Part shown: one piece after another, positions 49,212 through 64,000 of the stretch | Position numbering within the stretch: position 1 is the first letter of the stretch | How the letters are laid out: every line of letters begins with the position of its first letter | Assembly (NCBI GenBank): GCA_026397315.1 | Contig: JAPLVC010000003.1 | Location: 41,258-105,257, forward strand | Length of the DNA stretch: 64,000 nt | Source of the DNA: Candidatus Aenigmatarchaeota archaeon | GTDB lineage: Archaea > Aenigmatarchaeota > Aenigmatarchaeia > QMZP01 > QMZT01 | Direction: 5' to 3' | Translations under genes and position numbers: made by a program | The notes under the pieces: model-generated | The model's database searches: none | Told to the model about the DNA's origin: nothing | Seen by the model: the letters and a program-made list of their open reading frames with translations, nothing else

Positions 49212-49362
49212 GAATATCAATTGTCAGCTTCACTTAAATAACACATAACACAAGCCCCAGGAGGGCTTCATAACAGGCGCGGAGACTACTTCTGGTGAAA
49301 AACCTGCAGAAAACGCTAAATCCAAGACTCTGGGGCGCACTGAAAGGAAAAACCGACATGCA

Positions 49363-50646
49363 GTGGGAAATGTCAACGGCAAGAAAATCAATGTCAACGG
49401 AAAAAACCGACACACTGCGGGAAATGTCAACGGTCAATGTCAACGGTTGCTCATCAAACTGTTGACAATGCCGTACGCGTCCTTTTCTCTCGCCCCGATC
49501 GGGAAGGAAATGAAAATATCGAGGCAGGTTATGTCCAAGTACAAAAAACGTTTGGCGCATATCGGTTTAATCAAAAGAATCCTGCCGAGCTGGCCCCCGA
49601 TGTACCGGCTTACCGAGAAGGCCAAAAAGCTCAATGTCAACGACTTCTCGTATAGTACGACCACCGTTGACATTGACGAGAAAATCGGCATGGAGGACGT
49701 GTTCATCACAATCCCGATCGCCGACAAAACCGGCTCAAACCTGCCGGAAGGGTTCTGGGAAAAAATAAACCTGAAGCTGAACAACAACGTCCAGAAGCAC
49801 GGCCACGTCAACCTGGGCGACTATACCTGCTCGATCAGGGAGACCTCGAAGAGCGTGATCATCCAGCTGGGCCCGGTCAGGCTGCAGGACTTCAAGGACG
49901 CCATCCCGATCTACAACGAGCTCGTCATGCGCCTGTACCAGCTGCTCATCCAGTACAACTACTTCATCGACCCTTTCAAGGCTCGCTGCTCCGATCCTGA
50001 GTTCACGTATTCGAATGTTGTCACCAGGGAGAACGCCAAGGAAATCACCGAGCCCAGAGTCACGGAGTATCTCGGATTTCCAAGAGAGAAGATGCTCCCG
50101 GGCGATCAGCCGGAAGAGACCTGGGTCAAGGGCGACAACAGCCCGGACACCGGCACGATCGAGTCCAACCACCGGCCGCTCGCCGCGGCCTGGCGCGCAT
50201 TCCCGCTCGCCATTCACCAGCTGCTCCAGCTGCAGACCAGGCAGACCGAGATTATGGGGAAGTACGCGGCCGAGATTGAGGCTCACCTGGACACCTACGC
50301 GAAAGTCAACGTCGCCTTCGAGAAGAACAACGCGCTCACCGCGGACGTCGGCAGGATCGCGCAGGGCTTTACTTCGGCGCTCGATTCTTTCAAACAAGCC
50401 CTGAGTGAGGTCCGGACACCGGCTCCCCAAAAACGCTCTGTAGATACAGTTCTGAGCGACCTGCAGGCCATGCAGCCATGGGAGAGGGTCAGGGTCAGGA
50501 TAATCCAGAACATCAGGGATTTCACGTTTACGGACGAATCCGGAGCGTCCAGGAAGGTCGATCACCTGAAGGCCGGCTCGGAGATATATCTCGCTCGGGA
50601 CCAGGCCATCGACGTGGTGACGTGGAAGGAGGCCGAGCTCGTATGA
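49363..50646 (+). CDS. Putative replication protein: N-terminal wHTH and C-terminal GINS B-domain-like module
   Basis: IGKEMKISRQVMSKYKKRLAHIGLI HTH; C-terminal VRIIQNIRDFTFTD...LKAGSEIYLARDQA..VV..EAELV; repeats at the 5' end. Confidence 0.6.
   Translation: MGNVNGKKINVNGKNRHTAGNVNGQCQRLLIKLLTMPYASFSLAPIGKEMKISRQVMSKYKKRLAHIGLIKRILPSWPPMYRLTEKAKKLNVNDFSYSTTTVDIDEKIGMEDVFITIPIADKTGSNLPEGFWEKINLKLNNNVQKHGHVNLGDYTCSIRETSKSVIIQLGPVRLQDFKDAIPIYNELVMRLYQLLIQYNYFIDPFKARCSDPEFTYSNVVTRENAKEITEPRVTEYLGFPREKMLPGDQPEETWVKGDNSPDTGTIESNHRPLAAAWRAFPLAIHQLLQLQTRQTEIMGKYAAEIEAHLDTYAKVNVAFEKNNALTADVGRIAQGFTSALDSFKQALSEVRTPAPQKRSVDTVLSDLQAMQPWERVRVRIIQNIRDFTFTDESGASRKVDHLKAGSEIYLARDQAIDVVTWKEAELV
49369..49676. 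repeat. Iteron-like AATGTCAACGG repeats
   Basis: Direct copies at 49369, 49390, 49423, 49436; near-copy at 49633; inverted copy at 49664-49674. Confidence 0.85.
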
Positions 50647-50921
50647 CGGAAACACCAAAGGCGAAGATTTTGAAAATATGGAATAAAACATACTGCCCGA
50701 AGTGCGAGGGAAAATTCAGTGTTGATTGGTCCTGCTCAGATTGGGATGCTCATCACGACAAGCTGGCCGGCATCGCCATCTCCGAAATCCTATCAGCAGC
50801 CAGGAAAGTTGTCGAAGACGAAAGAGCCAGCCATTCGAAGGCCTGCAATAAACACTGCGATCTGCCGTTCTGGGACATCTTAGAAAAACTCGAAGCCCTG
50901 AAGGAGCCCGTGAAAAAATGA
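50643..50921 (+). CDS. Proviral Zn-binding hypothetical protein
   Basis: ATGA-coupled; CPKC. Confidence 0.65.
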   Translation: MTETPKAKILKIWNKTYCPKCEGKFSVDWSCSDWDAHHDKLAGIAISEILSAARKVVEDERASHSKACNKHCDLPFWDILEKLEALKEPVKK

Positions 50922-51115
50922 AGTACGTGCCGCACATCCCGTTCGACCGGAAGCTGGTCCGGAAGTGTTCGAACGTCACCGGCACGGACCCGAAGATAAT
51001 CATGAAGAACGTCGAGGCGATCCTCGAGGCCATCGGCGGAAAAAAGGAGAGCGACCTGCTCTTCACGTCCTGGGGAGTCCGGAGCAACAAGGAAATGGAG
51101 GCCGGAAAATGCTGA
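50918..51115 (+). CDS. Proviral hypothetical protein
   Basis: ATGA-coupled 65-aa ORF. Confidence 0.6.
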   Translation: MKYVPHIPFDRKLVRKCSNVTGTDPKIIMKNVEAILEAIGGKKESDLLFTSWGVRSNKEMEAGKC

Positions 51116-51264
51116 CAAGCGGGAAATTGCTATTTCCCGACTGTAAAGCCGGGTTTCAAGCGACAGATGCCGGTTTTCATCTGATGGAAGACCTGCCAGA
51201 AAGCATCCTGGAAGAAATTAATAGTAACTGAATATTCAGACGAATATTAAGGAGTTGATGACGC

Positions 51265-52038
51265 ATGGAAGCCAGAGAGATTGAAAAATACCCGAAGCAG
51301 ATCCTGGTCACTGTCGAGAACAGCGATGAGCTCGAGAAGCTGACCGAATTGTGCGACGGGTCGCTTGAGCACGTCGAGGCCGAGATTGCATTTCCAAACG
51401 GCAAAGAGATAGAAGTCCCTTCCCCGGCGCCTCCCGAGAAAGAGAAGCGGCACTACAAAAAGCGCGAGCCGAAAAAGCCCGAGCAGGAACTCGTCGGCGT
51501 GAAGCTGCGGAACAAGGACAGGAAAAAGCTGCCCATCGCCGCGGCCGCGAAGCGTGAGCGCATAGAGAGGGCCAAGGAGCTCGTGCGCAACGGCATGGAG
51601 CCGCTCAAGGCATACAAGAAGGTTTGGGGAGAAGGCCGCGTGAGCGGAAGGGTCCTGGGCGAACTCAACAAGGAAACCGGAAAAGAAGGGAGGCCGCCCG
51701 AGGAGACGGCCTCCACGGTTGCGACACCCAGACACATGACCAGGAAAGAGAGGGACGTCCGCAAAGAGAAAAAGAACGGAAAGACTGCTGACGCATTCAA
51801 GATCGCGGCCGGCTTCCTCGAGGATAAGAAAGGAAACGCGGACGGATTCGCGTTAGGATCCCTGCAGGAGCATCTTCAGATGAATGGAATTCCAGATTAC
51901 GAGATTGGAAAGATATCGTCAGCCATGACCGACGCGGGAAGCGATTTCATGAGAATGTTGTGGCACGATCACAGCGTCAAAATATCTACATTCAGAGGAG
52001 AGAACGGCAAGATGTTTTTGGCCGAGGAAGCATCATGA
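51265..52038 (+). CDS. Proviral charged, Lys-rich hypothetical protein
   Basis: 257-aa ORF with AGGAG SD. Confidence 0.8.
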   Translation: MEAREIEKYPKQILVTVENSDELEKLTELCDGSLEHVEAEIAFPNGKEIEVPSPAPPEKEKRHYKKREPKKPEQELVGVKLRNKDRKKLPIAAAAKRERIERAKELVRNGMEPLKAYKKVWGEGRVSGRVLGELNKETGKEGRPPEETASTVATPRHMTRKERDVRKEKKNGKTADAFKIAAGFLEDKKGNADGFALGSLQEHLQMNGIPDYEIGKISSAMTDAGSDFMRMLWHDHSVKISTFRGENGKMFLAEEAS

Positions 52039-62635: not shown

Positions 62636-62637
62636 CG

Positions 62638-62934
62638 ATGGATAACTTCAGGACGGCCATTTTCTTGCTGGCATGGACATTCACAATCGGATTGATTTAC
62701 ATGGTCGTGAATACGATGATGGGCGGATATTTCATTCCCATCATGAACGACATCGCCAACGACAGCTCGCTCGTCCAGGACAAGGCGGCGTACAGCCTGC
62801 AGACCGGCACAGCGACGACGGCCTTCAACGTCGCGTGCCTCATCCTGGTGCTCTCACCATACGCGTATTTTTTCGTCAAGCTGCTGCTGAAGAAGGAATC
62901 GACTTCACAGCCGTATCAACCGGGGGTATGGTGA
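62638..62934 (+). CDS. 2-TM hairpin protein (minor virion protein candidate)
   Basis: Two hydrophobic helices with an NxS-containing loop. Confidence 0.7.
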   Translation: MDNFRTAIFLLAWTFTIGLIYMVVNTMMGGYFIPIMNDIANDSSLVQDKAAYSLQTGTATTAFNVACLILVLSPYAYFFVKLLLKKESTSQPYQPGVW

Positions 62935-62935
62935 C

Positions 62936-63217
62936 ATGGGTTCCGGATATCGCCTCGTGCTGGGAATACTGACCATCGTCCTGGTCTCATTCCTATGGAT
63001 ACCGTTGAATTATGTATTTAGCCTGGCCGCGGCAGCGCTCAATGCCGGCATCACAGACGCGGGGACGATTTCACGCAACAACATGATGGCGCAGGGAATC
63101 TATTACACGCTTTTCATCATTATTGTGGGGCTGATAATTTACATCATCAAGCCAGACAAGGGCGAGGACGACCAGAGCGATCAGCAAGGAGGAGCCTACT
63201 ATGGCAGTCCGGTTTAA
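62936..63217 (+). CDS. 2-TM hairpin protein (minor virion protein candidate)
   Basis: Same topology as the preceding gene. Confidence 0.7.
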   Translation: MGSGYRLVLGILTIVLVSFLWIPLNYVFSLAAAALNAGITDAGTISRNNMMAQGIYYTLFIIIVGLIIYIIKPDKGEDDQSDQQGGAYYGSPV

Positions 63218-64000
63218 CGTGTTTCTCGTTATCACGTCTTTCCTGGTGGCCATCGCTGCAGCTGCGCCAGGATCCGCTCAGGCCTGGCTCTCGGGATATG
63301 CTTCATGTTACAAAATAACGAATACAACCAGCTCTGTCTTTAAGTCGGGATATCAGATACCTTTCACGTTTAACAATTCTCAAATATCATATGCGGACTG
63401 CGGCTCAAATTTCAACGAACTCAGATTCACCAACGGAACGGACTGCGACACAGACAGCGGAACCACCCTAAATTATTGGCTTAATGGTGACGGGGGAAGT
63501 CAGAATGAAACTTCATATAATGTATGCGATCAATCAAATATTTCTAAACCATGCACAGCTTTCATACAGGCGAACGCTGCGAATATGTCCTCATTCCTGG
63601 TTTTCTGTAATGCGTCAGACACATTCAAGAATTCGAGCGGGACCGCGACATGGAATTTTTATGACGACTTCAGCGATAACGACGGCTCCGACTGGACCGT
63701 ATTGGCTGGAACATGGACATTCTCATCTGGCTATGCAAACGGAACTACCAACTTAGCTTATTTGACTAAAAATGGGACTGTAGTGCCTGACGCATGGGTA
63801 TTAAAATATAAATTGATGATACCCTCGACCGGTGGAACTGTAACATACGCCTTAGGGCGGAGCAACGACAGCGGCTACGGGATAGCCAAGAACGATAATG
63901 GCGACCCGGACGCTACGGATATATTCAGAAGGATAGTCGGAGGTAACGCAAACCAGAATGAAAGCTTTACATGTTGCACAGTTGATAATGCATGGCACAA
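63201..64000 (+). CDS. Secreted DUF2341-like glycoprotein (adhesin candidate), truncated by the window end
   Basis: Manual translation MAVRFNVFLVITSFLVAIAAAAPGSAQAWLSGY...YQIPF...FNELRFT...LNYW...FYDDFS; many NxS/T sites; GGAGG SD. Confidence 0.8.
   Translation, partial: MAVRFNVFLVITSFLVAIAAAAPGSAQAWLSGYASCYKITNTTSSVFKSGYQIPFTFNNSQISYADCGSNFNELRFTNGTDCDTDSGTTLNYWLNGDGGSQNETSYNVCDQSNISKPCTAFIQANAANMSSFLVFCNASDTFKNSSGTATWNFYDDFSDNDGSDWTVLAGTWTFSSGYANGTTNLAYLTKNGTVVPDAWVLKYKLMIPSTGGTVTYALGRSNDSGYGIAKNDNGDPDATDIFRRIVGGNANQNESFTCCTVDNAWH

Follow-up and report, generated by a model that had tools for sequence, protein, structure and literature searches.

A probable spindle-type provirus at a tRNA-Thr gene of an Aenigmatarchaeota archaeon and its candidate prepilin-peptidase-like protease

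The window analyzed here, a stretch of 64,000 nucleotides, comprises the last 64 kb of contig C5 from the 1.05-Mb, 91% complete genome of an uncultured archaeon, with position 64000 being the contig end. Host proteins adjoining the element described below group at 90% identity with proteins that bear the name Candidatus Aenigmatarchaeota, and the host is therefore a DPANN archaeon, as a preliminary description of this DNA had supposed. From position 49252 to the contig end the window is occupied by an integrated provirus. All genes named in the preliminary description were found at their positions, its left end at 49300 is corrected to 49252, and the protease gene at 53475-54011, absent from its gene list, is added. 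The features are as follows.

49252-49265, plus strand: left attachment (att) site, a 14-bp copy of a tRNA-Thr 3' end in minus-strand sense (14/14 identity)
49348-49447, plus strand: short direct repeats where the Rep-like gene begins, possibly an origin or binding sites for Rep
49363-50646, plus strand: Rep-like protein with a winged helix-turn-helix (HTH), a DxS-type middle domain and a C-terminal part resembling a GINS B domain; start codon uncertain
50640-53497, plus strand: variable early genes for Cys-motif proteins, AbrB, a MazG-like protein and a small membrane protein
53475-54011, plus strand: GxGD membrane aspartic protease of the prepilin-peptidase (A24/FlaK) type, candidate capsid maturation protease
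54260-55171, minus strand: intact tyrosine integrase, internal to the element (PF00589, E 1.8e-18)
55172-55226, no strand: short region between integrase and late operon, putative divergent promoter
55227-57734, plus strand: five conserved genes 5' of the ATPase gene, four with membrane segments, candidate assembly module
57739-58782, plus strand: P-loop ATPase (Walker A and B), candidate packaging or extrusion motor
58779-59258, plus strand: soluble protein of 159 amino acids (aa), encoded invariably between the ATPase and capsid genes and conserved at 43-78% identity in every relative
59491-59841, plus strand: candidate major capsid protein (116 aa) with a leader of about 37 aa and a hydrophobic helix hairpin with an N-x-S/T loop
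59864-59879, plus strand: GC-rich hairpin 3' of the capsid gene, possible terminator or mRNA-stabilizing element
59906-62635, plus strand: Gly/Ala-rich protein of 909 aa, candidate minor or internal virion protein
62638-63217, plus strand: two small proteins with two transmembrane segments each (hydropathy), candidate minor structural or tip proteins
63201-64000, plus strand: secreted, sequon-rich adhesin-like protein, 5' part, cut by the contig end

The element is a real integrated provirus, as had been proposed, which is borne out by its att site, an empty site in relatives and a gene order conserved in independent elements. Host synteny with three genomes of the same genus runs to about position 48900 and then stops. 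The sequence at 49252-49265 is identical in 14/14 positions to the 3' end of the tRNA-Thr(CGT) that genomes G350 and G351 have at this locus; it has the orientation expected of a left att and lies about 100 bp before the Rep-like gene; its sole other genomic copy is the 3' end of tRNA-Thr(TGT) on contig C6. The empty site is seen in G349 and in ENA ERZ27247694, where tRNA-Thr(CGT), tRNA-Pro and a HIT gene come within about 1 kb after the same host genes (the tRNAs in ERZ27247694 being deduced from a gap of 730 bp). The insertion site is a hot spot, and both G349 and G351 contain shorter remnants of the att sequence beside other cargo, with a second integrase adjoining the tRNA in G351. Other integrase-bearing elements at tRNA-Thr(CGT) were noted in G351 (L099, C1 13640-15346) and in G350 (C28). 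The sequence after tRNA-Thr(TGT) on C6 resembles that in G350.

The order integrase, ATPase, capsid, adhesin is common to at least seven metagenomic elements (L006, L008, L009 and L047-L050), a family that we could not place in any described family. In full, it begins with the integrase on the minus strand, small membrane genes, the ATPase, the 159-aa protein and the capsid gene, and it continues with a protein of 800-900 aa, two small two-transmembrane proteins, an adhesin of 980-2185 aa and further small membrane genes. The genes at 55227-57734 occur in the same order at 29-74% identity in L006, L047 and L050, and most of them also in L008, L009, L048 and L049. Equally conserved in the family are the 909-aa protein (27-48% identity in L006 and L047-L050), which matched no family in Pfam, PHROG or NCBIfam, and the two small membrane proteins at 62638-63217 (33-61% identity, order retained). 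In both L047 and L050, the late genes are followed by the Rep-like gene, a circularly permuted map that fits free circles or integration at another point. In total, 28 relatives of the ATPase and about 98 of the capsid candidate were found. Among 371 genomes of the phylum the capsid family is restricted to the source genome and one contig-edge gene, so that these are not host core genes, an explanation which the preliminary description had raised as an alternative. Scans of IMG/VR with capsid and ATPase yielded no relative and a GTDB scan no close integrase; phage and plasmid records searched by tblastn with relatives of the ATPase and of the capsid protein gave nothing significant, spindle virus BLv25 at E 10 not being counted. 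For the roughly 98 capsid proteins, labelled hypothetical or unnamed, the element serves as an anchor linked to a host, the Aenigmatarchaeota.

Three further loci touch on this family. L048 is a 26-kb member forming the first contig of GCA_041488755.1 (JBGPPX010000001.1) and may have been described already. Distantly related ATPases (L011-L029, E 1e-12 to 1e-30) are present in some 20 further genomes of the phylum, in part beside integrases, and possibly represent further membrane-assembled proviruses. In L071 (1-1520), the protease gene is immediately preceded by a tRNA-Asn, another tyrosine integrase and a gene homologous to the 63-aa gene of the window (59265-59456), an arrangement reflecting either another att position or a composite element.

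The right end of the element, about 3.5-7 kb, is lost at the contig break. The search for att repeats suggested in the preliminary description was successful for the left att, whereas the right end was not recovered from the assembly: none was found on other contigs, the conserved right-end genes of the relatives are unmatched in the genome, and the HIT gene and tRNAs expected to the right of the element are missing from the assembly as well. In L047 and L050, the distance from the start of the adhesin gene to that of the Rep-like gene is 4.2-4.3 kb, from which a provirus of about 18 kb, or up to 22 kb given a longer adhesin, is estimated. The tRNA-Gly remnant at C4:441 was rejected as right att, since both the tRNA and the sequence differ, and a palindrome between protease and integrase was rejected as att because it is not conserved. 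The former (C4:441-455, L087) is a 3' remnant of tRNA-Gly(TCC) preceded by foreign AT-rich DNA and forms the right boundary of another island within this tRNA cluster; the gap after C5 therefore probably holds two element ends.

A missing right end would also be expected if the element were defective, a satellite, or a free virus assembled chimerically onto a host contig, and the last 95 bp (63906-64000), identical to the interior of a host surface-protein gene on contig C1 (L003:4893-4987), betray assembly trouble at that end. On the other hand, all frames of the element in the window are intact with full-length matches to relatives, and a precise tRNA-derived att at a syntenic left junction is not expected from a chimera, so that we regard this explanation as extremely improbable. 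The 95-bp identity itself reflects either a swap of an adhesin module between host and virus or a misassembly of C1. The surface protein on C1 has a DUF2341-like domain that is 41% like the viral one and lacks about 66 aa just before the shared stretch; its orthologue in G350 has a full domain with a different sequence.

The virion genes center on the 116-aa protein at 59491-59841. The two helices ascribed to it earlier are reproduced by a structure model (pLDDT 81) consisting of a leader helix and a hairpin of the long hydrophobic helices 37-67 and 76-115. Position 37 is G or A in 95 of the 97 aligned family members and is followed mostly by S, Q or T and then by the hydrophobic helix; at position 36, 34 of the 97 have K/R and 35 have P, and the loop carries an N-x-S/T sequon in all but one (96/97). 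K/R-G/A before a hydrophobic helix is the cleavage pattern of archaeal (class III) pilins. A PHROG family annotated as virion structural protein (phrog_16261) is matched by 35 of 98 members (best E 1e-6), and the Pfam family His1_capsid weakly by two of the 98 (E 0.0025); the nearest named Atlas clusters, VP1_VP3 (0.86) and His1_capsid (0.84), serve as leads only. Tandem paralogues of the capsid gene, one with an inserted domain, are found in L006, L008 and L047. A paralogue of 210 aa (L006:9296-9931, L047:5008-5640) has a sequon-rich domain between its two helices and a K/N-G-S-V site; it is absent from the window, where the 63-aa gene stands instead. The GC-rich hairpin behind the capsid gene, described as a terminator before, is retained in six relatives but does not exceed shuffled sequences in the window (z -0.26).

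The ATPase gene at 57739 contains the sole Walker A motif of the element in the window, and five relatives likewise encode one small ATPase per element. GK and DE of the Walker A and B motifs are invariant among the relatives, 11 of 23 of which match the DnaA-like family phrog_5484 (best E 3e-11). SSV1 B251 has been described as a DnaA-like ATPase (PMC9608457), and we infer that phrog_5484 corresponds to the B251 family. Consistent with the preliminary description, no terminase, portal, HK97 or jelly-roll protein was matched in Pfam, PHROG or NCBIfam.

Taken together, a virus of some membrane-assembled kind is very likely. We consider it probable that the element is a temperate virus of the spindle-shaped (SSV1/His1-like) assembly type, with a length of about 18-22 kb, that has inserted itself at the tRNA-Thr 3' end in an Aenigmatarchaeota host. 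The earlier wording, spindle-shaped or otherwise membrane-assembled, remains the best reading, with the spindle shape resting on architecture and on weak, indirect profile links. Several observations speak against it. The capsid protein of the window has no significant direct match to any spindle-virus family and its ATPase matches no family at all, those of spindle viruses included. Fold searches with the capsid model, which had been recommended for comparison with spindle capsids, returned generic hairpins with neither SSV1 and SMV1 nor VirB2 and CedA1 listed; for this hairpin they are non-discriminating and hence uninformative. Sequence searches of the PDB, the capsid candidate included, gave no match. 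Finally, another integrase adjoining the tRNA, such as is seen in G351 and L071, could have produced the att.

The same provirus might instead produce a flexible filament or a pleomorphic vesicle extruded through the membrane in the manner of inoviruses or IME1, its hairpin coat being processed like a pilin. This we judge unlikely: the relatives of the ATPase do match the Zot and M13 pI families, yet more weakly than DnaA-like phrog_5484, and the pilin-like cleavage site would suit such a coat, but inoviral coat proteins are single helices and no pleolipovirus fusion protein was recognized in Pfam, PHROG or NCBIfam. A filamentous form has been proposed for IME1 elements that encode SSV1-VP1-like proteins (10.64898/2026.09.15.751708).

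The combination of pilin, prepilin peptidase, ATPase and adhesin could also belong to an integrative element that is not a virus and that makes a pilus or cell-contact structure for transfer between cells. Hairpin pilins exist, and DPANN cells live attached to hosts. Archaeal conjugative elements have both prepilin peptidases and pilins (PMC6563490). Such an element is nevertheless quite improbable here, because one P-loop gene per element together with the lack of a TraG-type ATPase in the genome argues against conjugation. The type IV secretion partners named in the preliminary description as a sign of a conjugative element were not found: there is no match of the TraG/VirB4 type, PF19044 is absent from the 91% complete genome (the right end of the element lying outside the data), the right ends of L047 and L050 hold small membrane genes only, and no relaxase was matched. 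The virion-protein PHROG matches of the capsid relatives likewise speak against a pilus.

Returning to a spindle-type virus, comparison with known systems shows both likeness and difference. Fuselloviridae such as SSV1 are tRNA-targeted and the SSV1 integrase is split on integration; unlike there, the integrase at 54260-55171 is intact and lies about 5 kb from the att at 49252, so the element is not a fusellovirus. Its proteins in the window also lack any significant sequence match to SSV1. The temperate character and the tRNA target are shared with SSV1. SSV1 further has a capsid made as a precursor and glycosylated at N-x-S/T, a DnaA-like ATPase (B251) and a large tip protein that is glycosylated (PMC9608457, PMC5748691), all with candidate counterparts in the element. 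The pairing of a hairpin capsid with an ATPase module recurs in Halspiviridae (His1, BLv25) and Wyrdviruses. According to the accessible part of one report (10.1101/2025.02.15.638363), however, His1 and BLv25 have a protein-primed DNA polymerase; no protein-primed family B polymerase was found in the window or the examined parts of the relatives, and the element is therefore not a halspivirus. The same part of that report states a hairpin major capsid protein plus an AAA+ ATPase as the signature of spindle viruses and describes paralogous major capsid proteins, an integrase and a large adhesin for those of nanohaloarchaea. By this description, DNSV-1 and DNSV-2 are like our element in DPANN host, size (20-22 kb), hairpin capsid with paralogues, AAA+ ATPase, tyrosine integrase and large adhesin, and unlike it in host phylum; no protease is mentioned there for DNSV. 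Huangdivirus of Bathyarchaeia is likewise a provirus called spindle-shaped from two-helix sequon capsids and an AAA+ ATPase, but had clear HHsearch matches to fusellovirus proteins including VP2 that are not seen here (PMC10541130). Spindle viruses of DPANN archaea are thus already known, and the apparent novelties are the link to a host, the family and the candidate maturation protease, the last because no protease was known for SSV1: in SSV1, capsid cleavage is essential and occurs at a Glu, and no protease gene was recognized in the genome (PMC5748691, 2017).

The protein encoded at 53475-54011 has 178 aa and six hydrophobic segments. Both candidate Asp residues lie in membrane segments and are invariant in four sequences, the second motif being G-F-G/A-D. 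It resembles the PF01478 (Peptidase_A24) Atlas cluster (features 0.94, TM 0.56-0.61) and has no direct match in Pfam. Its model retrieved FlaK (3S0X) as rank 1 of 48,161 chains with a Z of 7.0 (root-mean-square deviation 4.2, 126 aligned), a value within the range of chance best matches that counts only together with the motifs and the Atlas result and as such tells against our proposal; the top Foldseek match, presenilin, is not significant (E 0.32). Each of these lines is weak, and together they make a GxGD protease very likely. It shares with FlaK and PibD (A24, GxGD) the two intramembrane Asp motifs and, tentatively, the predicted fold; their substrates are cut after G/A before a hydrophobic helix, and the candidate capsid site is alike. 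Unlike these enzymes it is shorter and virus-borne, and its candidate substrate has Pro rather than Lys/Arg at -2. Nor is it closely related to the A24 enzyme of the host.

From the pilin-like G/A site in the capsid relatives we infer that the virus matures its own capsid, in which case the viral protease would cleave its own capsid precursor. The protease gene adjoins the integrase also in L070 and L071, and Pro at -2 is shared by the capsid protein of the window and capsid proteins from the same samples as L070 and L071; such a site may be poorly cut by the host pilin peptidase. Against this stands that the protease was not seen in the examined parts of L048, which also has Pro at -2, and of L049, so that it is not shown to be a core gene. 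It is conceivable, if somewhat doubtful, that the element represents an undescribed spindle-type family of Aenigmatarchaeota whose capsids are processed like type IV pilins and whose Pro -2 branch gained a GxGD protease of its own. A search of the literature for prepilin peptidases encoded by archaeal viruses found none, which is no proof of novelty, and a scan for class III signal peptides in the host, made with too strict a pattern, gave none. The viral protease is a likely candidate for the type of capsid-trimming enzyme not identified in SSV1, the best-studied lemon-shaped virus. With candidate enzyme and candidate substrate in one small genome, the cleavage step can be tested by co-expression; if true, capsid maturation of membrane-assembled archaeal viruses would be tied to pilin processing.

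In the mechanism envisaged, the repeats at the Rep gene would be the site from which the excised circle replicates. The capsid precursor would insert into the membrane as a hairpin with its loop outside, where it would be N-glycosylated, and a GxGD protease, here the viral enzyme, would remove the cytoplasmic leader after G37; relatives without a viral protease would perhaps have it cut by the host prepilin peptidase. ATPase and membrane partners would then drive assembly and non-lytic budding, with the large glycoprotein (adhesin) forming a host-binding tip.

Among the other genes, the integrase had been described as intact, and alongside its PF00589 match it has all catalytic residues (R, K, HxxR, H, Y) and 44-83% identity to relatives. 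The AT-rich core of the adjoining region at 55172-55226 is kept in relatives and includes an imperfect palindrome (z -1.7). Of the early module outlined before, the Rep-like, Cys-motif (52035, 52188, 53082) and AbrB/MazE genes (52445-52606, Pfam E 6e-7) are in place, whereas the MazG label for 52684-53085 is an assumption from motifs only; this protein matches functionally uncharacterized PHROG families (E 2e-13). L050 and L047 also have AbrB and one of the Cys-motif genes. The Rep-like protein aligns with a 394-aa protein of L050 and with 243- and 173-aa proteins of L047, relatives in which Pfam detects an HTH (E 1.6e-6) and Gins51_C (E 0.017), and it would act in replication. The KHYYM-type catalytic motif of Rep-Arvir, as given in the accessible part of its source, was not seen in its sequence. 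A 32-nt repeat pair (49348-79 and 49402-33, 88% identity) is accompanied by further 11-nt copies. Both additional hairpin proteins noted earlier do have two transmembrane segments but no detectable homology to the capsid protein, and the open reading frame of the DUF2341-like adhesin is present, but its Pfam match (E 0.003) is below the cut-off. The adhesin fragment has 12 sequons in 266 aa; at its position, the relatives have proteins of 977-2185 aa with a variable N-terminus (DUF2341, LamG) and a conserved C-terminus of 550 aa.

Rfam gave no match. Beyond the element, six contig ends (the starts of C1, C5, C3, C6 and C7 and the end of C2) carry one or the other of two repeats, each about 137 bp long, which are probably the ends of insertion sequences that interrupted the assembly. 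An AT-rich island at 15000-22000 of the window (GC 0.31-0.43) contains a tRNA-Gly-like cloverleaf (16637-16708) without a match to the tRNA-Gly(TCC) of the genus. The AT-rich orphan genes at 45402-45959 and 48906-49220 are missing from the syntenic region of relatives, and the latter, just outside the left att, may be older cargo.

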